A stretch of 64,000 bases of DNA from Lachnospiraceae bacterium (GTDB lineage Bacteria; Bacillota; Clostridia; Lachnospirales; Lachnospiraceae), in NCBI GenBank assembly GCA_017399445.1, contig JAFQCM010000035.1:3593-67592 (forward strand), given 5' to 3'. The notes under the pieces were generated by a model, which was given only the letters and a program-made list of their open reading frames with translations, was not told the origin of the DNA and ran no database searches. A program made the position numbers and the translations under genes. Below, in pieces: positions 44,497 to 64,000 of this stretch. Every line of letters starts with the position of its first letter. Positions within the stretch are counted from its first letter, which is position 1.

Positions 44497-45765
44497 ATGG
44501 AGGTAACTCTTTTGATTCCATTTTTTAACTATATAAAAGGGTATGTGCGTATACGGCTTAAGGGAGGCTCACCGGAACGATTTTTAAATCTATGCAGTAA
44601 CAACAATATTTTAATCTGGCAGGTTGTGAGAATAGAAGACGAATACGAAATGTATCTGAGCCTGCAGGCTTTTAGAGAATTAAAATCGATTATTCGAAAA
44701 ACAAATGTAAGGATAAAAGTAGTGGAAAGAAAGGGACTTCCATTCTTTTTATACCGGTACCGTAAAAGAAAAATGTTTTTTGCAGGAATTGTCATTTGTG
44801 CTGTGTTTGTCTATATTTTGTCTTTATTTGTGTGGCAGATAGAAATTAATGGAAATTATGCCAGAACTACAGATGTATTATTAAGATTTTTAGAAGCCAA
44901 CAATGTTTCCCATGGAATGAGAAAATCAGAAGTGAATTGTGAAGAAATTGAAACTATGTTAAGGGCAGAATATAATGACATTATCTGGACTTCGGTAAAG
45001 CTTAAAGGAACAAGACTGATTATAGATGTACAGGAAAACACTGATACCTCCATTGAAAATATTAGCGCAGAAGAGGCCAGTGATTTATATGCCCAAAAAG
45101 AAGCTATTATTACGGAAATCGTTACTAGAAATGGCAGTCCTTATGTGGCAAAAGGTGATGTGGTAAAAGCAGGAGATTTGCTGGTTGGTGGGGCACTTCC
45201 TATTACCAATGACTCAGATGAAATTATTAATTATCAATATGTGGCAGCAGATGCAGATATCTATGGAAAGACTATTTATGAGTATGAAGATAGTTTTGAT
45301 TTAAAGTATAAAAAGCATGAAGATACAGGAAATGTGCAAAAGGGACTATATCTGAAAATCCATGAAAAATCTATTTTTTTAGGTAAAAAGAAAATAAAAT
45401 TTGAACATTATCATACACTATCTGATATCAGGCAATTGAAATTTGGCGAGAATTTTTATCTTCCATTTTCTATTGGAACTGTGAAAGTATTTGAAGAAAA
45501 GGTACAGAATAGTAAGTACACCAAAAAAGAGGCAGAATTACTGGCAAAGAAACGTCTTTTGAAATTTCTTGAAACTTTAAAAGAAAAAGGGGTTCAAATT
45601 CAAGAAAATAATGTTACAATAGACGTAGATCAAAATCAATGTAAGGTCAGTGGAACTATAACTGTAATTGAGAAGCTAGGGATTCGGAAAAAAGCTTCTA
45701 TTATACAGCTAGATGTGGATGGAAAGGAAAATGAAATAGATGGAGAAACAGGAGACAATTATTAA
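44497..45765 (+). CDS. yqfD: Sporulation protein YqfD (stage IV)
   Basis: N-terminus ...GYVRIRLKGGSPERFLNLC...I.IWQV, a central TM, and C-terminal GDLLVGG. An alternative TTG start at 44512 lies 8 nt after GGAGG. Confidence 0.85.
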   Translation: MEVTLLIPFFNYIKGYVRIRLKGGSPERFLNLCSNNNILIWQVVRIEDEYEMYLSLQAFRELKSIIRKTNVRIKVVERKGLPFFLYRYRKRKMFFAGIVICAVFVYILSLFVWQIEINGNYARTTDVLLRFLEANNVSHGMRKSEVNCEEIETMLRAEYNDIIWTSVKLKGTRLIIDVQENTDTSIENISAEEASDLYAQKEAIITEIVTRNGSPYVAKGDVVKAGDLLVGGALPITNDSDEIINYQYVAADADIYGKTIYEYEDSFDLKYKKHEDTGNVQKGLYLKIHEKSIFLGKKKIKFEHYHTLSDIRQLKFGENFYLPFSIGTVKVFEEKVQNSKYTKKEAELLAKKRLLKFLETLKEKGVQIQENNVTIDVDQNQCKVSGTITVIEKLGIRKKASIIQLDVDGKENEIDGETGDNY

Positions 45766-46732
45766 TATACCTATGGAACATATGAAAAACGTGTTTGGAC
45801 AGTTTGATAATTATATCAAAAAAATTGAAAGAACATTGAATGTTTCTATTGTTGCCAGAGGGGAAGGCATTCATGTAATGGGAGAAGAAAAAGCAGTAGA
45901 AAAGGCGAAGAATATATTTGACAATTTAATTGCCCTTTCTTTACGGGGCAATACCATTACAGAGCAAAATGTAGATTATATTTTATCCCTATCTTTCGAA
46001 GAAAAGGAAAATAAAGTTCTTGAAATTGATAAAGACTTAATTTGTCATACCATTCAAGGAAAGCCAATTAAACCAAAAACTTTGGGACAGAAGCAATATG
46101 TAGATGCTATTCGAGAGAAAATGATCGTATTTGGAATAGGACCTGCAGGTACCGGTAAAACATATCTTGCAATGGCAATGGCAATTCAGGCTTTCAAAAA
46201 TGATGAAGTAAGTCGTATTATTCTTACCAGACCGGCAATTGAAGCAGGAGAAAAACTGGGATTTTTACCGGGAGACCTGCAAAGCAAAGTAGACCCATAT
46301 CTAAGACCATTGTATGATGCACTATATCAGATTATGGGAGCAGACAGCTTTATGAAAAATATGGAAAAGGGATTAATTGAAGTAGCACCTCTTGCTTATA
46401 TGAGAGGACGTACACTGGATAATGCTTTTATTATTTTAGATGAAGCTCAGAATACAACTCCGGCTCAAATGAAGATGTTTCTAACACGAATTGGATTTGG
46501 ATCAAAAGTAGTAATTACCGGAGATGCTACACAGAAAGACCTGCCTTCCAATCAAAAGTCAGGGTTGGAAGTAGCAGAACGCGTGTTGAGAAAAATTGAT
46601 GATATTGCTTTTTGTACTCTTACCAGTAAGGACGTAGTGAGACATCCATTGGTGCAGAAGATTGTAAAAGCTTATGAGGATTACGAAGTGAAAAAACAGG
46701 CAAAATCAAAAACAAGGGGACTTACAAAATGA
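45740..46732 (+). CDS. phoH: PhoH family ATPase
   Basis: Walker A GPAGTGKTYLA, plus ILDEAQN and ITGD.TQ.DLP. Confidence 0.93.
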   Translation: MEKQETIINIPMEHMKNVFGQFDNYIKKIERTLNVSIVARGEGIHVMGEEKAVEKAKNIFDNLIALSLRGNTITEQNVDYILSLSFEEKENKVLEIDKDLICHTIQGKPIKPKTLGQKQYVDAIREKMIVFGIGPAGTGKTYLAMAMAIQAFKNDEVSRIILTRPAIEAGEKLGFLPGDLQSKVDPYLRPLYDALYQIMGADSFMKNMEKGLIEVAPLAYMRGRTLDNAFIILDEAQNTTPAQMKMFLTRIGFGSKVVITGDATQKDLPSNQKSGLEVAERVLRKIDDIAFCTLTSKDVVRHPLVQKIVKAYEDYEVKKQAKSKTRGLTK

Positions 46733-47907
46733 TAAGAAAAATCAAAAAAAATACCATGGTGATGGTTTTTCTTATGTATATAGAAACATTTATCTGTGCA
46801 GGGCTTGTGGCTTTTGGTGTTCAAGATATGAGTTTGCAAAAAACTATAGCCATTATGGCACTTTCTTTTGTGCTGTGTACGGCATTTATAGTTGCTCTGG
46901 CAGCGGAAACTTTTTCCAGAGAAAAGTATAATATGTTTTCTTTTTGGGAAGTGACTATTACTTATGGCATTGGGTTACTGATAGGGGCAGCTATGCTTTA
47001 TGAACCGGATTACTGCGACACTGTGTTAATACTTCCAGTAATGATGAGTATTATAGCCGGTATTGGACCGGCAGTTGCAGGTCATGCTGTGGTTTTAAGT
47101 CTTGTATTTTTATGGGGCGGAATTAACATGGAAATATTAGTGTTCTATTTAATTGCAGGAATTGCCGCCGGATATCTAAGCAAGTGTTTCTTAAAGAAAA
47201 GCCAGATGTTATCGGGATTTATTACTGTATTTAGCACCTATGTGCTTACTATGTGTGTGTATGTGTTCTTTAAAACAGAACGTATCAATTTACTTGTGTT
47301 GGTAAATATATTAATAGGAGCATTGGTAAATGTTTTATCTTTAATAGTAGTTCTTCCGTATCTTTATAACTCCAGAAATAAAGAAATGCATGATTTACAA
47401 AAAATGCTAACTCCAGAATATGAATTGATGGATGTTATGATAAAGAACAAAAAGAAGGTATTTGCTCATGCAGTACATTCTTCAGAACTAGCAGAAAAAG
47501 CAGCAGAGGAAATTGGAGCAGATGTACTTTTGACAAAATGCGGGGTATACTATTATAATTATGCAAGAACACTTGGTAAAGAGTATCAGGATGCTTTTAT
47601 AGAAACTGCCTATTGGCATAAGATACCCAAAAGACTTACAGATATTGTGTTGTCCTTAGGAAATGAATCGGATAAAGTAATTAGCAAAGAAGCAACAGTG
47701 GTATTGGTCACAGAAACCCTGGTATTGGCAAAAGAATCTAAATTTGCAGGAGAAGCAGCAGATAGTAAGTATTTAGATGCAGTGATTACCCAGCGTTTTA
47801 ATAAAGGATTGTTAGAACTTTCCGAGATTTCAGTGAAAGATTACATGAGTTTGAAAAAGTACATAATAGAACAGTTATGCAGTGAAAGAAAGGAAGAAAT
47901 AGCATGA
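46729..47907 (+). CDS. 7TM PgpH/YqfF-like membrane protein with a degenerate (probably inactive) HD domain and no extracellular N-domain
   Basis: Conserved position phoH-X-ybeY. Multi-TM N-terminal half, C-terminal HD-fold similarity (AEKAAEEIGADVLL, LLELSEISVKDY). YYHDIGK is replaced by YYYNYAR (nt 47554-47559 encode Y-N). Confidence 0.7.
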   Translation: MIRKIKKNTMVMVFLMYIETFICAGLVAFGVQDMSLQKTIAIMALSFVLCTAFIVALAAETFSREKYNMFSFWEVTITYGIGLLIGAAMLYEPDYCDTVLILPVMMSIIAGIGPAVAGHAVVLSLVFLWGGINMEILVFYLIAGIAAGYLSKCFLKKSQMLSGFITVFSTYVLTMCVYVFFKTERINLLVLVNILIGALVNVLSLIVVLPYLYNSRNKEMHDLQKMLTPEYELMDVMIKNKKKVFAHAVHSSELAEKAAEEIGADVLLTKCGVYYYNYARTLGKEYQDAFIETAYWHKIPKRLTDIVLSLGNESDKVISKEATVVLVTETLVLAKESKFAGEAADSKYLDAVITQRFNKGLLELSEISVKDYMSLKKYIIEQLCSERKEEIA

Positions 47908-48401
47908 CAATTTGTCTGGAACAGGAATACCAGTTAGATTTAGGAATAAACTATAAAGAGATGGCAGATAAAGTCGTTGAAGCAGCGTTAGATTATGAGA
48001 AGTGTCCCTATGAGTGTGAGGTAAATATAATATTAACAGATAACCCTGGCATTCATGAGATTAATAAGGAATCAAGGAAAATCGACCGTCCTACAGATGT
48101 GCTATCTTTTCCAATGGTAGAATATGAAACCCCTTCTGATTTTGAAACCATAGAAGAAGAACAGCCGGAATGTTTTCATCCGGAAACAGGGGAGCTGATG
48201 TTGGGAGATATTATTATTTCCTTAGATAAAGTAAAAGAACAGGCGGAAAGCTATGGTCATTCACTGGAAAGGGAGTATGCTTTTCTTTTGGCTCATAGTA
48301 TGTTACATTTGATGGGTTATGACCATATGGAAAAAGAAGAAGAAAAGGTAATGTTTCAAAAGCAGGAAGAAATTCTTGAAAGTTTGAATATTACTCGTTA
48401 A
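47904..48401 (+). CDS. ybeY: rRNA maturation endoribonuclease YbeY
   Basis: Zinc motif HSMLHLMGYDH; 165 aa; ATGA overlap with the upstream gene. Confidence 0.95.
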   Translation: MTICLEQEYQLDLGINYKEMADKVVEAALDYEKCPYECEVNIILTDNPGIHEINKESRKIDRPTDVLSFPMVEYETPSDFETIEEEQPECFHPETGELMLGDIIISLDKVKEQAESYGHSLEREYAFLLAHSMLHLMGYDHMEKEEEKVMFQKQEEILESLNITR

Positions 48402-57487: not shown

Positions 57488-57841
57488 ATGAGGAATACAG
57501 CGGTTTTTGAAACGAATGATAAGAAAACAAAGAAAGTTTTCAGTGAAGAAAATATTCAAATTTTAGAAATAAAAGATGTTATTTATGTAGAAAGTGAGGG
57601 GCATTATCTTCATATTTATATGGTAGAAGGTCAAATGATAATACGAAGTAAAGTGAAGGAATTTATAGAAGGAATAGAGGAAGTATTTCTTCACTCACAT
57701 CAGAGCTTTGCTGTTAACATGGCTTATATTAAGAAATTTGGAAACAATGAAATTGAGTTAAAGGATGGAAGAAAGATTCCGGTGAGTAGAAGTAAGTTTA
57801 AGGAATCTAAAGAAAAATTGATAAAATATTTGGATGGTTAA
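57488..57841 (+). CDS. LytTR-domain-only DNA-binding protein (no receiver or sensor domain)
   Basis: 117 aa. Matches the LytTR pattern: I.YVES.GHY..IY........R.K.KEF......FL..HQSF.VN..YI.........L.DG..IPVSRSK. AGGAGGGG 6 nt (CACCAA) before the ATG. Confidence 0.8.
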   Translation: MRNTAVFETNDKKTKKVFSEENIQILEIKDVIYVESEGHYLHIYMVEGQMIIRSKVKEFIEGIEEVFLHSHQSFAVNMAYIKKFGNNEIELKDGRKIPVSRSKFKESKEKLIKYLDG

Positions 57842-57902: not shown

Positions 57903-58229
57903 TTATTTGTCTTTTGCTAGTCTTTTTGCAATGGAAAGTAAAAGCTCCTGATCTTCAATGGAGATTTTTGACCAATAGCTTATAAGGTGTTTGAATGACC
58001 GCTGCTCTGATATATCATTAGGTTCCATATCCATGAAAAATTCAGAAAGTGTAATACCAAAGGCGTAACAAAGTCTTTCTAATGTTGGAATAGATGGAAT
58101 GGTATTCCGCTTCATCATATTTGTAAGGGTGGAGTATGGGACATCTGCTTCTTGTGCTAAGCGATAATAGGTCCATCCATAAACTTGGCATAGTTTATTT
58201 ATATGTTCAAGTACATTAAATTCATTCAA
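57903..58229 (-). CDS. XRE-family helix-turn-helix transcriptional regulator
   Basis: 108 aa. HTH core GWTYYRLAQEADVPYSTLTNMMKRNTIPSIPTLERLCYAFGITLSEFF. TTG start 7 nt after GGAGG; the nearby ATG is out of frame. Confidence 0.8.
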   Translation of the reverse strand: MNEFNVLEHINKLCQVYGWTYYRLAQEADVPYSTLTNMMKRNTIPSIPTLERLCYAFGITLSEFFMDMEPNDISEQRSFKHLISYWSKISIEDQELLLSIAKRLAKDK

Positions 58230-58420: not shown

Positions 58421-58747
58421 AGTGACAAATTTGCAAGAAAATTTTGTAAAAAAACCAAAATTTAATGCTAATTTTGACACCACAGATACCAGTTTTGCCA
58501 AAATGGAGAAATCAAAAAAGAGAAGTAGTATAATTTTTGTATAAAATTTTGTGTGCCAGGCATGATGAAAAAAGCATTTATTGGGGTAGAATGCGTGGGG
58601 AATTTCGGATGCTTGGCAGGTAGGGGATGGGAGGTAAGGATAGAGTGGTTTAAAAGGTGACAGATGTTTGGGTGAGAAAAATAGTAGATAGGGAATGTGA
58701 GTGTTGAAATGAAGGGTAAAATATGTAATGAGGAAGAGGTGTTTTTT

Positions 58748-61700
58748 ATGAGAGAAATTAAGAAAAGGTATAAGAAAATAGTGGCACTGGTGCTTTGCCT
58801 GGGAATGATGACAGGAATGTTCGAGGGTGTGCCAGGATTAGGCGAATATAGTGTGGTGGCGGAAGCAGCATATGCAAATCACAACTATGATGGTAGAATT
58901 GCTTGTACATGGTATGCATGGAAAAGAGCACAAGAAAAGTTGGGGATTACATTTCCAAATAACTGGGGCCATGCTGTTTCATGGTATTCGAATGCCTCGA
59001 TAGCAGGATATGAAACAAATTCTACTATTCCAAAAGCAAATTCACTTGCAGTATGGAGTCATGATACAGACTCTATGGGGCATGTGGCGTTTGTGGAGGA
59101 GGTTATAGGAAATTCAGTATATTTATCAGAGGGAGGTTCTTTACAATCTGTAAATGGTATTTACTCAAGAGTTGTAAATAAAAACAATATGAACCGTAGT
59201 TGGTATAGTAATGGTGTGACTACACACGAAACATTACTGGGATATATATATTTGGATGGTGGTAATTCAAATACAACTAATTCTTCAGTTCAAACCCAGT
59301 CCCCATCCATCAACCAAGACTTATCAGAAACAAAATACAACTACATTCAAGAAACAACTTTTGGAAGAAAAGCAGTGTTCAGAAATCCATCCGGAAGACA
59401 AATTGAAGATTTAGGAATGGTTTTATACGATGAAAACGGAAAGGAAATTACCAGAAATCATGAAGGAACACACTCTTCTGGAGTTGGTTCTTATAAACAA
59501 GAGTCATTTATTTATGAAGATGTGACAAAAGATTTAGGAATAGTTTTAGAACCGGAAACAAATTATTTCTATCAGTTTTTTATTAAAGTAGCAGGTTCTG
59601 ATTTAGTATATTCAGATAGATATAGTATTCAAACAGGGGGTAAAAAAACTCCAAATACTCCTTCCATATCCATAGACAAAACCCATGTGGCAGCTGGAGA
59701 TTCTGTTACAGTAACTTGGCAGGCTGATGTGGCGGCAGTCAATGGATATGATATTACTGTAGTATCAGAAGATGGAACTTACAAAAGAACAATTACTGTA
59801 AATGATAAAAATGCATTCAGCGCTTCTGTATCAGTTCCTAATGTAGGAACTTACAGAATTATGGCGGTAGCAAAAGGAAAAAGCAAAAATAGTGGAACTG
59901 CCGTTTCAGAACAGACAATTACTGCACATGACAGTTCTACAGTAACCTTTGTACAAAATACAGAGAACGGTGAAGAAGTTTTAAAAATGGAACGGGTTCC
60001 ATACGGACATAAAGCAACTGCACCATCAGCTCCGTCCAGAGAGGGTTATACTTTCCAGGGATGGGATAAGGATTATAGTAAGGTAACAGAAGATTTAAAA
60101 GTTACTGCAAATTATAAAATTAATACATACACAGTGAAATTTGTGGGGGAAAACGGAACTATTTTAAAAGAAGAAAGGGCTCAATATAAATCTGCAGTAC
60201 AGCCACCAGAAGCACCAGCCTCTACAAAACCGGGATATGTATTTGGTGGATGGAGCAGCAATGATTATGAATGTGTGAAACAAAATGCCACAATTAAAGC
60301 AAGTTATGTGTGGGAAAATAATGAACTTCCAATTATTGTAAGTGATGTTAAATGCGAGTATAAGGATACAGGATATCTTTTGACTTATACCATTGCAAAT
60401 TATCCTACATCCAAAACAACAGGACGTGCCATAGTATCCTTAAAAACATCAACAGGAAAATTAGTTGCAACTACAGAGTCTAGTGCATTTACTATTGATA
60501 AAGATGTAACAAAATCAAACCAGGAAATATTTGTCCCTTATGAAGGAGTAGCATCTACAGCTGAAATTGTAATTGTAGATAAGTTTTCATCAGGCATTCC
60601 AATTTCTAAAAGCCAGTCTTGTGGGGTTTCTAGAGAATGGAGCGCATGGCAGACCACAAAACCGGAAGGAAATTATGTCCTTGAATCAAGAACAGAATAC
60701 AGAAGTCAGGATAAAGTAACAACAACAAGTTCAGCATCTTCTTTGCCAGGCTGGACATTATATAATACCTCAGAGTCATGGAGTGACTGGGGAAATTGGA
60801 GCAGTTGGTCCAGAAACAGCTACAGTAGTTCTGATAGCAGACAGGTAGAAACGCAAAATGTAACAGATTCTAATGGATATAAGATAAACAATTATTACTA
60901 TTACAGATATTGGAATTCTACATATGGTCAATGGTACTATACATATTCTTCTTCTATGGGTGGAACAAAATATACTTTTTCCCAAAGAGAGGGAGATTCA
61001 CCAGCAATGTATTGGTATGCAAACTATGATGGTCATAATGCATACCGCTTGAACAATAATAATGGTGGTTATGGAGTTAATTTTAATAATGAAATCTGGT
61101 ATTTGGAAAGTACACAAAATGTTGATGCTACTTCTCATACAGAATGGCGTTATCGTGACAGAAGCAAAAACTATACTTATTATTATTATAAATGGAATGG
61201 ATGGTCTGACTGGACATCAGAGTCCATTACAGCTTCTGATAATAAACAGGTAGAAACCAGAACCACTTATCGCTATAAATCAGATGTGCAGGGTGAGGAA
61301 GATAATACGGGAAATTTAAGAGAAGTGACAGGAAGTGTTCCAACAGAGTTTGCAGGTAAGCAGGCAACTTTATTAGTATACAAAAACGAGGAAGCAGCGG
61401 ATTACAATAATGAATATGTAGGTCAAAGTGAAATCAATGAAGATGGTACCTATCATTTTTCCTTTATTTCAAGGGAAGAACCATCAGCGGAAACAGGAGA
61501 TTTTACGATTGATTTGGCGATTGAGGGAGCAACAGAATCTATCTATGTTGATACCATTAAAGCACCATTACCTAAATATACTGTTACATTTGTAGACTGG
61601 GATGGAACCGAGATTTCAAAACAAGAGATAATTCAAGGAGAAACAGCGGTCTTGCCGGAAAATCCTGAGCGAGAACATTATAAATTTACCGGATGGGATA

Positions 61701-64000
61701 CCGGAACTACAAATGTTAGGGAAGATTTGATGATAACAGCGCAGTATGAGAAGGAGATTTATACCGTTGTGTGGGTAGACTGGAATCGACAGAATTTTGC
61801 TATAGATACTTATACATATGGAGAAAAATTACTAGAACCATCTTTAACAGAAGTAGAAGGGTATGAATTGGTTTCATGGAAAGATGAAAATGGAGAAACA
61901 CCAGCAGAAGTAACAAAAAATATTGTGCTGACCGCAGAATATAAAATTAAGGAATACACAATTAAATTCTATGATTGGGAAGGAAATTGTATCAATACAC
62001 AGATTGTAGAGTATGGAAAATCAGCATTGGTACCAGAAACACCAGTAAAAACCGGAATGGTATTTGAAGGCTGGAGCAGTGCAGATTATACCTGTGTAAA
62101 AGGTGATTTGGATATCTATCCGAACTTCTCCTATGAAGAGACAGTAGAAAATCCAGAGGTAGATGTGACATCAGGTGCATATGAACATTCATTTACTGTG
62201 AAATTATCAGGAGAAGAAGGAGCAGCTGTTTATTATACTACGGATGGAAGTAAGCCGGATCAATACAGCCAGCAGTATCAAAATGCAATTGAAATCAATA
62301 AAAATACAGTACTTCAGTTTATTGCATGTAAAGAAGGAAAAAATGCCAGTGAAATTCAAAAGGCAGTATATCTAATTTCTGAAACAGAAGATACACAAGG
62401 AATTCTAAAGATTAAAAAGAGTTCATGGGAGTTAGAAGCAGGCAGTACAACAGATTTTGAATATACTTTATATAGAGAAGATGGAGATAACGAAGTAGAA
62501 TTTTTCTCTTTAAATGATGATGTGGCGGAAATTAGCGAAAATGGTAAGATACATGCCAATGGTACAGGAAGCACACAAATCTTTGCAATAACGAAGGACC
62601 TGAAATATGCCGATTTCTGTACAATTAATGTCACTTCAAATGAGATTCCAGTATCAGAGATTAAGCTGGAAAAGAATGTGATATGTATTAGTCCGGAAGG
62701 AAATGAAAAGATAGAAGCGACAGTAGAGCCTGCAAATGCAACAAATCAGGAATTATCATGGTTTTCTGATGACAGCCAGATTGCAGAAGTAAGTAAAGAG
62801 GGAAAAATCATAGGAAAATCTATGGGAATTACTTCTTTAAGAGGCTATTCCTATACAGGAAACTGCTATATTGATTGTACGGTAGTAGTAGCAGAACCTT
62901 CTGTAGAGTTAGCTGACACAGCAATTGTAGTAGAACAGGGAGAACAAGTAACAGAAGAAGCTAATATTATTGGAAGTATTGAGCAAGAATTCCATTGGGA
63001 AAGTGATAATGAAACTGTTGCTACAGTAGATGAAACTGGTCTTATTACAGGAATTGCTCCAGGACAAGCAAAAATAAGTTATGTATCTGAGGACAACCAG
63101 TATAAGGCAAGTGTCATTGTGATTGTTACAGATAAGCAGGAAGAAAAAGTAAGTATAGAAAACAGCGTAGTATCAGAAATTGGGAATGTTACTTACACTG
63201 GAAAAGAGATGAAACCAGAAGTTAAGGTAGAAAGTAATGGTAAAACATTAACAGTATTAGAAGATTATTCTATTGTATTTAGCAATAATGTGAATGCAGG
63301 AACAGCAATGGTTTATATTATTGGAAAAGGAAATTATACAGGAGTTGTTGAGAAAACATTTACTATTTTACCTGCTGATATTGCATCAGTTTCTATAAAG
63401 GAAATTGGCGAACAGAAGTATACAGGAGGCGAAGTAAAGCCTGATGTTGTAGTGAAATCTGGAAGCAAGGTGTTAAGTGAAGGCATTGATTATGTTTTAA
63501 CTTATGAAAATAATACAAATGTTGGCATAGGAAATGTAGTGATTAGTGGACTTGGAAACTATACAGGAACAAAAACTTATTCATTTAAAATAGTTGCAGC
63601 AAGTCAACCATCTCCAGTAGTTACAAAAGCGCCAACACCAATAATTACAAAAACACCAACGGTTACAAAGACACCAACACCAACAATTACGAAGGCACCA
63701 ACCAAAGCACCGGAAAAAGTAACAGCACCAGCTAAGCCAAAGATTAAATCTGTAAAAAATGTTAAGGGTAAAAAGATGACAATAAAACTTAGTAAGAAAG
63801 TAAGTGGTGCTGCTGGATACCAGGTTACTTATGCTACAAACAGCAAGTTTACAGTAGGTAAGAAAAATGTAGATATGAAATCAACTTCTAAGACGATTAG
63901 TAAGCTGAAAAAGGGAAAAACATATTATGTAAAGGTTCGGGCATATAAGAAAGATTCTAAGGGTAAGAAGATATATGGAAAGTATAGTTCTGTGAAAAAA
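58748..64000 (+). CDS. Giant secreted multidomain protein with N-terminal CHAP peptidoglycan hydrolase domain; 5' 1751 codons, continues past the window end
   Basis: I translated 58748-64000 (5253 nt) and met no stop. GAGGTG lies 6 nt before the ATG. Signal peptide MREIKKRYKKIVALVLCLGMMTG...AEA-AYA. Not in the ORF track because no stop is in the window. Domain order is given in the sub-features below. Confidence 0.9.
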   Translation, partial: MREIKKRYKKIVALVLCLGMMTGMFEGVPGLGEYSVVAEAAYANHNYDGRIACTWYAWKRAQEKLGITFPNNWGHAVSWYSNASIAGYETNSTIPKANSLAVWSHDTDSMGHVAFVEEVIGNSVYLSEGGSLQSVNGIYSRVVNKNNMNRSWYSNGVTTHETLLGYIYLDGGNSNTTNSSVQTQSPSINQDLSETKYNYIQETTFGRKAVFRNPSGRQIEDLGMVLYDENGKEITRNHEGTHSSGVGSYKQESFIYEDVTKDLGIVLEPETNYFYQFFIKVAGSDLVYSDRYSIQTGGKKTPNTPSISIDKTHVAAGDSVTVTWQADVAAVNGYDITVVSEDGTYKRTITVNDKNAFSASVSVPNVGTYRIMAVAKGKSKNSGTAVSEQTITAHDSSTVTFVQNTENGEEVLKMERVPYGHKATAPSAPSREGYTFQGWDKDYSKVTEDLKVTANYKINTYTVKFVGENGTILKEERAQYKSAVQPPEAPASTKPGYVFGGWSSNDYECVKQNATIKASYVWENNELPIIVSDVKCEYKDTGYLLTYTIANYPTSKTTGRAIVSLKTSTGKLVATTESSAFTIDKDVTKSNQEIFVPYEGVASTAEIVIVDKFSSGIPISKSQSCGVSREWSAWQTTKPEGNYVLESRTEYRSQDKVTTTSSASSLPGWTLYNTSESWSDWGNWSSWSRNSYSSSDSRQVETQNVTDSNGYKINNYYYYRYWNSTYGQWYYTYSSSMGGTKYTFSQREGDSPAMYWYANYDGHNAYRLNNNNGGYGVNFNNEIWYLESTQNVDATSHTEWRYRDRSKNYTYYYYKWNGWSDWTSESITASDNKQVETRTTYRYKSDVQGEEDNTGNLREVTGSVPTEFAGKQATLLVYKNEEAADYNNEYVGQSEINEDGTYHFSFISREEPSAETGDFTIDLAIEGATESIYVDTIKAPLPKYTVTFVDWDGTEISKQEIIQGETAVLPENPEREHYKFTGWDTGTTNVREDLMITAQYEKEIYTVVWVDWNRQNFAIDTYTYGEKLLEPSLTEVEGYELVSWKDENGETPAEVTKNIVLTAEYKIKEYTIKFYDWEGNCINTQIVEYGKSALVPETPVKTGMVFEGWSSADYTCVKGDLDIYPNFSYEETVENPEVDVTSGAYEHSFTVKLSGEEGAAVYYTTDGSKPDQYSQQYQNAIEINKNTVLQFIACKEGKNASEIQKAVYLISETEDTQGILKIKKSSWELEAGSTTDFEYTLYREDGDNEVEFFSLNDDVAEISENGKIHANGTGSTQIFAITKDLKYADFCTINVTSNEIPVSEIKLEKNVICISPEGNEKIEATVEPANATNQELSWFSDDSQIAEVSKEGKIIGKSMGITSLRGYSYTGNCYIDCTVVVAEPSVELADTAIVVEQGEQVTEEANIIGSIEQEFHWESDNETVATVDETGLITGIAPGQAKISYVSEDNQYKASVIVIVTDKQEEKVSIENSVVSEIGNVTYTGKEMKPEVKVESNGKTLTVLEDYSIVFSNNVNAGTAMVYIIGKGNYTGVVEKTFTILPADIASVSIKEIGEQKYTGGEVKPDVVVKSGSKVLSEGIDYVLTYENNTNVGIGNVVISGLGNYTGTKTYSFKIVAASQPSPVVTKAPTPIITKTPTVTKTPTPTITKAPTKAPEKVTAPAKPKIKSVKNVKGKKMTIKLSKKVSGAAGYQVTYATNSKFTVGKKNVDMKSTSKTISKLKKGKTYYVKVRAYKKDSKGKKIYGKYSSVKK
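58880..59273 (+). other. CHAP (cysteine, histidine-dependent amidohydrolase/peptidase) domain
   Basis: GRIACTWYAWKRA with Cys codon at 58904-58906. NNWGHA.SWY. SMGHVAFVEEV with His codon at 59081-59083. YLSEGG. Confidence 0.85.
59936..60313 (+). repeat. Two Listeria-Bacteroides (InlB B-repeat/Flg_new-type) repeats
   Basis: TVTFV...G..L....V.YG..A..P..P.REGYTFQGWD.......DL.V.A.Y, then YTVKFV.ENG..L........S.V.PP..P...GYVFGGW. Confidence 0.75.
60629..61282 (+). other. Trp/Tyr-rich module with WSxW ladders (unassigned family)
   Basis: WSDWGNWSSWS (60779-60811) and WNGWSDWTS (61193-61219). Each is followed by a D-S/N-R/K-QVET tail. Between them lies a Y/W/N-rich core NNYYYYRYWNSTYGQWYYTYSSS... 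Confidence 0.6.
61574..62131 (+). repeat. Three more Listeria-Bacteroides-type repeats
   Basis: YTVTFVDWDGTEI...YKFTGWD; YTVVWVDWN...GYELVSW; YTIKFYDWEGN...GMVFEGWS. Confidence 0.75.
62399..63130 (+). repeat. Three Big_2-like Ig domains, preceded at 62153-62371 by a chitobiase C-terminal-like module (VYYTTDGSKP)
   Basis: Patterns ...V.FFSLNDDVAEISENGKIHANGTGST.I.A; ATNQELSWFSDDSQIAEVSKEGKIIGKS.G; FHWESDNETVATVDETGLITGIAPGQAKISY. Confidence 0.7.
63161..63595 (+). repeat. Two tandem ~70-aa modules (YTG.E.KP.V.V...G..L....DY...Y.NN.N.G.A.V.I.G.GNYTG....F.I)
   Basis: aa about 1472-1541 and 1547-1616 of the giant ORF share this pattern. Confidence 0.6.
63602..63742 (+). repeat. Pro/Thr/Lys-rich linker with degenerate T-K-x-P-T repeats, followed by an Fn3-like domain to the window end
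   Basis: PSPVVTKAPTPIITKTPTVTKTPTPTITKAPTKAPEKVTAPAKPK. Confidence 0.8.

Follow-up and report, generated by a model that had tools for sequence, protein, structure and literature searches.

A long-stalked secreted protein of a Lachnospiraceae bacterium with a predicted CHAP wall-hydrolase head, and its gut-Clostridia family with exchanged heads and C-terminal ends

The last 5 kb of a 64,000-nucleotide (nt) stretch of Lachnospiraceae DNA (contig JAFQCM010000035.1; hereafter the window, whose positions are used throughout) are occupied by a giant gene, at 58748-64000 on the plus strand, whose predicted product carries a CHAP domain at the tip of a very long modular stalk. The question raised by this locus is against which wall, if any, such an enzyme is directed, and the first-pass annotation of this DNA had left three answers side by side: an inter-bacterial weapon, a cell-separation enzyme held at a distance, or an adhesin with lytic activity. 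As far as sequence can tell, the molecular identity is secure: this is a Sec-secreted "fibrillar enzyme", a term introduced for proteins in which a stalk carries a catalytic tip (Monzon et al., 2022; PMC9210967), with a CHAP wall-hydrolase tip that is predicted to be intact. As to function, the evidence from its family favours an outward-acting enzyme of the first kind, and we assign a probability of about 0.5 to its being a surface-tethered hydrolase that cuts peptidoglycan other than the producer's, with cell separation and adhesion each keeping a smaller share.

The gene is absent from the list of open reading frames (ORFs) on which the first-pass annotation was based, because the lister omits ORFs that run off the window edge; inside the span, just ORFs of 63-92 amino acids (aa) are listed. 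Independent direct translation nonetheless found 58748-64000 open throughout, as a single frame of 5253 nt, or 1,751 codons, without a stop. Such a frame in DNA of 35% GC cannot have arisen by chance, because AT-rich sequence is dense in stops. A 32 kb metagenomic contig (L001) encodes a protein, P0001, that is 100% identical and ends in VKIKK and a TAA stop, five residues past the window edge; the full length is thus 1,756 aa, with codons 1-1751 in the window and 5 codons and the stop beyond it. A ribosome-binding site read directly from the sequence (GAGGAAGAGG, 58730-58739, plus strand) lies 8 nt before the ATG at 58748 and is conserved at the locus of a relative, L002, and in P0003 and P0006, which are close homologues, the start is at the equivalent MR(D/E)xKK position, which favours this ATG. 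The metagenome gene caller chose an in-frame upstream ATG at 58709 (MKGKICNEEEVFF..., 58709-58747), which adds 13 aa; this start was judged less likely, since homologues lack those 13 residues and the ribosome-binding site precedes 58748. On L001, an intrinsic terminator with a 16-bp stem follows 60 nt 3' of the stop, and the gene is monocistronic with its own terminator.

The first 40 residues (58748-58867; this and all following segments of the protein are on the plus strand) form a predicted signal peptide with a basic n-region, a hydrophobic core at aa 11-25, which is the sole hydrophobic run of the protein, and an A-E-A cleavage motif. The CHAP (peptidase C51) catalytic domain follows at aa 47-129 (58886-59134). 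In scans with Pfam hidden Markov models (HMMs), CHAP (PF05257) scored 54.9 bits in the whole protein and 59.6 bits in aa 1-200, against a cut-off of 26, and the head matches the solved peptidase C51/CHAP domains 9eum and 9euf of the PDB with an E-value of 4e-11. Cys53 (CTWYA), His112 (GHVAFVE), and Glu128 (SEGG) are in register with the catalytic residues of these structures; the first-pass annotation, which had called the signal peptide and the CHAP domain, had numbered Cys53 and His112 correctly. From these residues, the head is predicted to be a catalytically intact CHAP peptidoglycan amidase/endopeptidase. No LysM, SH3b, CWB, or GW wall-binding repeat was found beside it by HMM and motif scans of the protein. 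Comparison with the closest relatives gives identities of 62-70% for the signal peptide in four of five (45% in P0004), of 5-37% for aa 41-160, and of 45-85% for the stalk, with conservation ending exactly at the A-x-A cleavage motif (AEA, before the next A). Because identity collapses between the cleavage motif and the stalk, the exchanged unit would be the mature N-terminal domain, a head cassette spanning approximately aa 41-175.

The acidic stalk extends over about 1,450 residues (net charge -84, isoelectric point (pI) 4.6) and is made of roughly 15-17 beta-sandwich modules, in an order that had been read essentially correctly at first pass, as judged by profile HMMs. It begins with two Ig/fn3-like spacer modules (aa 176-395, 59273-59932), which are 41-56% identical to the spacers of relatives. 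They had been named Ig-like segments, a name that could not be verified, the Ig-like Pfam hits being sub-threshold only, and aa 176-400 found no match among PDB sequences. Next comes a cassette of Flg_new repeats, beta-sandwich, Trp-rich module, and further Flg_new repeats, which was found in 111 of the 120 best relatives taken from a longer list of matches and is hereafter called the core. It starts with Flg_new / Flg_new_2 repeats 1 and 2 (aa 398-516, 59939-60295) and ends with Flg_new repeats 3-5 (about aa 944-1125, 61577-62122; 74.8 bits in three stretches), i.e., the two plus three Listeria-Bacteroides repeats of the first-pass annotation. Between them lie a beta-sandwich module without Pfam hit (aa 521-623, 60308-60616), all-beta in an AlphaFold2 model with a predicted local distance difference test (pLDDT) score of about 90 and with domain-level fold matches to Ig/macroglobulin-like domains only, a Trp/Tyr-rich module (aa 624-854, 60617-61309), and a small beta-sandwich that closes the central region in the AlphaFold2 model (aa 855-930, 61310-61537; conserved motif ...LLVYK..EA.DY.NEYVGQ...EDG.Y.F...REEP...GDFT).

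It is the Trp/Tyr-rich module that defines the family: its recurring W-S-x-W ... E-x-R-T-x-Y-R-Y motif contains invariant Trp/Tyr columns, and it is conserved in all 111 core-bearing relatives. It has no Pfam hit. The "Trp-ladder" of the first-pass annotation is therefore a real conserved module, but its fold was not matched, as aa 624-854 alone gave no significant solved-structure match (best PDB fold match: E 0.08, template modelling (TM) score 0.13). AlphaFold2 models computed from alignments of relatives are all-beta, with pLDDT 87.6 for aa 521-930 and 88.8 for aa 624-854, and a fold search with the 410-aa central model returned only Ig/macroglobulin-like matches at the level of single domains, with TM about 0.2.

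Beyond the core, the stalk continues with the chitobiase-C-like module that had been called (CHB_HEX_C_1/Fn3_assoc, aa 1141-1207, 62168-62368; 62-69 bits), the three expected Big_2 domains (aa 1221-1480, 62408-63187; 93-109 bits, three stretches), and two tandem Ig-like modules with a YTG...GNYTG motif (aa 1481-1620, 63188-63607). The last two could not be verified as named modules: aa 1481-1620 had no hit in the Pfam copy used and no PDB sequence match, and a faint precomputed match to PF26918 (Ig_Eae) was seen in one relative. Four segments in all have no Pfam family, at aa 176-395, 521-623, 624-854, and 1481-1620.

The C-terminal end is of a different nature. A Pro/Thr-rich linker, read directly from the sequence (aa 1621-1662, 63608-63733), leads to a Lys-rich terminal fn3 module (aa 1663-1756, 63734-64000, with its last five residues beyond the window edge), in which fn3 is recognized at aa 1667-1739 with 32.3 bits when scanned alone; linker and Fn3-like domain are thus as first described. 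The terminal 94 residues contain 32 Lys/Arg for 2 Asp/Glu (net +30, pI 10.5). With the complete C-terminus available from P0001, a motif scan found no LPXTG, YSIRK, GW, or choline-binding motif in the protein, and a Pfam scan found neither dockerin nor SLH; in particular, there is no LPXTG-like motif anywhere and no hydrophobic run besides aa 11-25, such that sortase anchoring has no visible basis. The same linker and tail end an otherwise unrelated secreted protein of 595 aa encoded 5.4 kb downstream (L001:20709-22496, tail at about L001:22080-22496), with 55% identity over 139 aa (E 4e-41). An exhaustive HMMER search then placed the tail 4-8 residues from the C-terminus of proteins of 418-2,717 aa, whose functional parts are as diverse as CHAP with a C-type lectin, a GH73 glucosaminidase, a transglutaminase-like core, or BspA-type leucine-rich repeats (LRRs). 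These tails are nearly always strongly basic; the closest ones have a net charge of +17 to +32 over 94 aa and end in ...YYVKVRAY.K.S.GKKVYG.YS.VKKVKIKK followed by the stop. When a clustered protein database was searched with the tail, all matches were fragments of at most 181 aa. It is known that basic C-terminal modules, among them the GW repeats of InlB, hold proteins on teichoic acids. Because of this precedent, its terminal position, its recurrence, and its charge, we infer that the Lys-rich fn3 serves generally to retain proteins at the surface, probably through binding to anionic wall polymers, and together with its linker it may be a previously undescribed wall-retention or sorting tag of gut Clostridia. 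Two genes downstream on L001, a DUF6935 protein (471 aa, L001:18839-20254) begins with an Ig-like module that is very rich in Lys and continues with repeated PT-rich linkers; this neighbourhood thus contains two strongly basic modules.

The architecture had been considered unusual at first pass, a view that needs qualification, as this protein is one member of a populous gut-Clostridia family. Named genomes with the core belong to Lachnospiraceae, including the cultured Blautia sp. HCP28S3_G10, Ruminococcaceae, Acutalibacteraceae, Eubacterium, and Candidatus Fimenecus, and were sampled from humans, ruminants, goat, deer, and chicken; the nearest relatives of the window protein are from Lachnospiraceae. 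Heads were grouped by Pfam scans of greedy-cluster representatives and a profile search; single-linkage BLAST clustering had been dropped because shared spacer modules merged all heads. Precomputed wall-hydrolase families are assigned to the heads of 47 relatives (CHAP, M23, NlpC/P60, phage-lysozyme, Amidase_5), and scans of the head-cluster representatives cover 20 more (CHAP, NlpC/P60, endolysin-like, C70/C39-like). The profile of a further group of 13 proteins, with a C-x-G-F-A...H signature and invariant Cys, His, and Asn columns, matches the CHAP domains of LytN and lysin L2 as well as NlpC/P60 structures. About 80 of the 111 heads are thus of wall-hydrolase type.

That these heads are exchanged between strains is best illustrated by P0040 (CHAP, L033:6681-11636) and P0047 (NlpC/P60, L032:10001-14932). 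Their heads are 14-24% identical, and from about aa 290 onwards the two proteins are 92-100% identical over most of their length; at the DNA level, similarity takes the form of a single block that starts about 770 nt inside the gene. The two genes also share a locus order, namely, a cohesin gene, an ORF of 38-39 aa, the hydrolase gene, and an ORF of 378 aa, and the pair represents a recent head cassette exchange at one locus. Hence, a variable cassette on a conserved scaffold is exchanged between strains, as in polymorphic toxins. Within the two stalks, identity additionally drops to 44-64% at about aa 1040-1090 and 1340-1390, a mosaic pattern that suggests further internal recombination. The tiny ORF (38-39 aa; L032:9768-9887, L033:6463-6579) is conserved in both loci, where it lies between the cohesin-bearing gene and the dockerin-ended hydrolase gene, and the 378-aa ORF has a weak cohesin match.

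The other end of the protein is variable as well. In five relatives that were scanned in full, the enzyme is N-terminal (aa ~50-180 in three, aa 238-371 in P0052), and the last 60-110 residues carry either a type I dockerin (P0040, P0047, P0031, and P0052) or three SLH repeats (P0105). Cohesin-bearing genes directly adjoin the dockerin-ended relatives in L032 and L033, and some relatives end in BspA-type LRRs.

The surroundings of the window gene are chromosomal. The upstream genes are housekeeping and sporulation genes, with a conserved Firmicutes cluster at 44497-48401 (YqfD-like, PhoH, 7TM-HD protein, YbeY) that indicates the chromosomal context of a spore-former; this cluster is followed by genes for a MurJ/SpoVB-like flippase, GlgB, MscS, an ABC transporter, and MiaB. 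The downstream genes, on L001, encode a methyl-accepting chemotaxis protein (a chemotaxis receptor), a histidine kinase-GerE protein, and the DUF6935 protein. The GC content shows no shift, remaining at about 35% along the gene and across the entire window, and the "accessory-looking segment" proposed at first pass consequently finds no support as a compositional island.

Two small genes for putative regulators precede the giant gene. The first (57488-57841, plus strand) encodes a 117-aa DNA-binding protein with a LytTR domain (Pfam) and no receiver domain, a candidate regulator of which a 66% identical, likewise LytTR-only homologue is encoded immediately 5' of the closest M23-headed relative, that of L002. 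LytTR-type regulators are typical of bacteriocin loci. The second, divergently transcribed (57903-58229, minus strand), encodes a 108-aa XRE-type helix-turn-helix (HTH) protein (Pfam HTH_3/HTH_26). In L003/L004 and L034, small HTH_3 genes are found at the equivalent place, but none is closely homologous to the window gene, and the HTH protein was rejected as a conserved partner. In the leader, a direct repeat, TTTTGACA-N13-TTTTGCCA (58472-58500, plus strand; 21 bp start-to-start), lies 29 nt upstream of a TATAAT box (58529-58534, plus strand). The leaders of the window gene and L002 share this repeat, as TTTTGACA-N13-YTTTRCCA with 21-bp spacing, and it occurs once within the window. A direct repeat with such spacing upstream of a promoter is the classic layout of operators of LytTR regulators of the AgrA/ComE type, and the repeat is suggestive of a LytTR operator. 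An Rfam scan of the 520-nt leader gave nothing credible and no riboswitch, such as one for cyclic di-GMP, and general scans of the leader for promoters and repeats yielded nothing informative. The "dedicated regulators" of the first-pass annotation are thus retained in part: the LytTR-only protein and the repeat are common to this locus and L002, but only 5 of 33 loci have a LytTR gene nearby, and conservation does not extend to the HTH gene. Pairs resembling AgrA/AgrC (Response_reg with LytTR, next to a HATPase_c_5 kinase; L002:5282-7008 and L032:4859-6960) sit within about 3-5 kb upstream of the M23-headed (L002) and NlpC/P60-headed (L032) homologues, which hints at quorum-type control in some lineages.

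How would these parts work together? The protein would be secreted by Sec and its signal peptide cleaved at about Ala40, which would leave the CHAP domain at the mature N-terminus. The basic fn3 tail would then hold the protein on the anionic cell wall of the producer, an anchoring role proposed because dockerin or SLH repeats occupy the same position in relatives, and the extended stalk would project the hydrolase outward by tens of nanometres. There, the head may cut foreign peptidoglycan, the likeliest targets being the exposed walls of neighbouring Gram-positive bacteria, for the purpose of antagonism or of releasing wall nutrients. Head cassettes (CHAP, NlpC/P60, M23, lysozyme, or amidase) would be recombined between the conserved signal peptide and the conserved stalk, and their replacement is in keeping with selection for altered bond or target specificity. 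Expression may be under the control of a LytTR-type regulator that binds the direct-repeat operator of the leader. This outward-acting enzyme is favoured because hydrolase and anchors are at opposite ends, because relatives dock to dedicated cohesins, because strains swap heads among classes that cut different bonds, and because LytTR-type regulators recur nearby. A contact-acting mechanism is, moreover, plausible because a bacteriolysin that is wall-associated and acts in a contact-dependent manner has been reported from Lactococcus (PMC12116727).

Several observations weigh on the other side. No immunity-like gene is found at the window locus or the other loci examined, nor is there a conserved downstream partner, and the neighbouring genes differ between loci. 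The scarcity of LytTR genes around the family makes the regulator link a weak one, and the specificity test of the direct repeat is circular, given that the repeat had been defined from the very two loci in which it is present. An anchoring role for the tail is deduced from position, charge, and recurrence only; were the protein simply released, the stalk geometry would fail. The relatives are top matches only, and about 30 of the 111 heads have no assignment (not scanned, weak hits, or truncated). Finally, CHAP, NlpC/P60, and M23 are the standard toolkit of autolysins, and autolysins and endolysins in general commonly shuffle their modules.

This last point leads to the alternative that survives best, even if it is still rather unlikely, namely, that of a self-directed autolysin, whose CHAP domain would remodel or split the cell's own wall during daughter-cell separation, wall turnover, sporulation, or germination, with a stalk that merely spans the thick envelope or positions the enzyme in it. 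PcsB, LytN, and MepS are among the PDB matches; sporulation and housekeeping genes, among them the yqfD-like gene and phoH, are located nearby, the lack of an immunity gene is what is expected of a housekeeping enzyme, and the basic tail could bind the cell's own wall. Such a role is difficult to reconcile with a catalytic domain that is separated by a stalk of more than 1,400 aa from the end where relatives have their known anchors, and that has no wall-binding repeat at its side. Near-identical stalks bearing unrelated heads that cut different bonds are equally hard to fit with a conserved housekeeping role, and cohesin-dockerin docking puts relatives outside the wall (cf. PMC3573020).

Less probable still is a fibrillar adhesin or colonization factor, in which stalk and tip would bind host mucus, dietary glycans, or bacteria, hydrolysis being secondary or lost. 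Modules such as Flg_new, Big_2, and CHB_HEX_C are typically found in stalks or in association with glycans, BspA-type LRRs end some relatives, catalytic domains can double as binding domains, and length and architecture fit the definition of fibrillar adhesins (PMC9210967). However, the catalytic triad is intact here, the Cys, His, and Asn positions are invariant in the profile of otherwise divergent heads, and the tip is almost always of a wall-hydrolase family, with no known adhesive tip domain detected by HMM scans.

Improbable too, and ranked just after the adhesin, is a released, untethered bacteriolysin or wall scavenger, whose stalk modules would bind carbohydrate or wall to target the substrate and whose main purpose could be feeding on peptidoglycan debris. 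It would account for a Sec signal that is accompanied by no classical covalent or known non-covalent anchor; CHB_HEX_C and Big_2 are common in secreted glycan-degrading enzymes, and class III bacteriocins are free enzymes exported by Sec (PMC12116727). In relatives, nonetheless, the corresponding position is taken by clear surface-docking modules, which argues against release, and the recurrence of the +30 terminal domain on many unrelated secreted proteins suggests retention over substrate targeting.

An origin as a prophage- or mobile-element-derived lysin or tail-fibre remnant is effectively refuted: one of the best structure matches of the head is a chain named ORF56 (9euf), which we take to be a phage tail-associated CHAP domain, and gut phage contigs give weak Flg_new-level matches, but no record of the phage and plasmid collections covers the family core, all contexts have chromosomal housekeeping neighbours, GC is uniform, and the protein has a Sec signal peptide.

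Within the preferred reading of an outward-acting, tethered hydrolase, a bolder and only tentative proposal is that the family may form a Sec- and contact-dependent antagonism system of gut Clostridia, with polymorphic N-terminal hydrolase warheads on a tethered stalk. Its tethers (dockerin-cohesin, SLH, or Lys-rich fn3 wall tag) would be interchangeable, the producer would be protected by the distance to its own wall instead of by an immunity protein, the warhead would be diversified by cassette recombination, as in polymorphic toxin systems, and the Trp-rich module might be a new structural or target-recognition element.

The protein has features in common with several known systems. Like the fibrillar enzymes (PMC9210967), it is very long and secreted, with a stalk of repeated beta-sandwich modules that includes Flg_new, and its N-terminal functional domain, catalytic rather than adhesive, is distal to C-terminal attachment. 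Size and stalk are those of a fibrillar adhesin-like protein (1,756 aa, five Flg_new, three Big_2, and other beta-sandwich modules), and so is the position of the functional domain, CHAP being at the mature N-terminus and the anchor of relatives at the extreme C-terminus. In contrast, the Flg_new-stalked example C6CUY3 has a beta-propeller-like, non-muralytic tip, and the same study does not mention CHAP, nor does it describe wall-hydrolase tips, head swapping, or a Trp-rich core (PMC9210967). The window protein also differs from this class in having no recognized anchor, with the Lys-rich terminal fn3 (+30) as a candidate.

In Ruminococcus flavefaciens, RflaF_05439 consists of a signal peptide, two NlpC/P60 domains, and an X-dockerin and is docked to the surface cohesin ScaE (PMC3573020). 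An N-terminal papain-fold module with a C-terminal dockerin is a logic shared by the dockerin-ended relatives of the window protein. RflaF_05439 has, however, a duplicated head, no long stalk, and no Flg_new/Trp core, and the window protein has no dockerin; this last feature also sets it apart from cellulosome-type dockerin proteins, which four relatives resemble in this respect.

The class III bacteriocins (lysostaphin, zoocin A, enterolysin A, LYSO) are likewise Sec-exported peptidoglycan hydrolases with M23- or CHAP-type domains, and the window protein shares this trait, its secretion being deduced from sequence alone. The bacteriocins are directed against other Gram-positive bacteria. They are about 20-50 kDa in size, have a target-recognition domain beside the enzyme, and often come with a linked immunity gene (lysostaphin, zoocin). 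By contrast, the window protein has a 1,600-aa stalk, no recognized targeting domain, and no immunity candidate. LYSO of Lactococcus carnosus is cell-wall associated and has been implicated in contact-dependent inhibition (PMC12116727). With polymorphic toxins (CdiA of contact-dependent inhibition (CDI) systems, Rhs, WapA, LXG), the family has in common a conserved scaffold and a variable effector cassette recombined between strains. In those toxins, the cassette is C-terminal and delivered into the target by dedicated secretion, with a cognate immunity gene downstream, whereas here the variable domain is N-terminal, would act outside, depends on Sec, and has no immunity candidate. Relatives are named "InlB B-repeat-containing proteins" by NCBI, and they do share with Listeria InlB the Flg_new/B-repeat module (TIGR02543). 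In InlB, too, the C-terminal region is basic, and its GW modules keep the protein non-covalently on the wall. The window protein has no LRR, GW, or host-receptor-binding architecture, so that the name reflects one common repeat type.

Each module type is already known, and long modular wall hydrolases are not rare. Full-text literature searches found no description of the family as a unit, with its conserved stalk core and fold-orphan Trp-rich module, of strain-level exchange of wall-hydrolase heads, or of interchangeable C-terminal attachment modules including the recurrent Lys-rich terminal fn3.

Even if the protein were an autolysin, its architecture would still be unusual, and the strain-level head swapping would need another explanation. 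Two of its parts are testable: the Lys-rich terminal fn3, as a possible, previously unrecognized wall-retention tag in Clostridia where these proteins have no LPXTG, and the Trp-rich module, which has no solved structural relative. Lachnospiraceae and Ruminococcaceae dominate the human and animal colon, where competition at close range is poorly understood beyond type VII secretion system/LXG toxins and small bacteriocins. If the outward-acting reading is true, interchangeable wall-cutters on a long stalk would be a simple way of killing neighbours or harvesting their walls, with no need for translocation into the target, and the family would constitute a natural library of lytic heads with differing bond specificities against gut Firmicutes.

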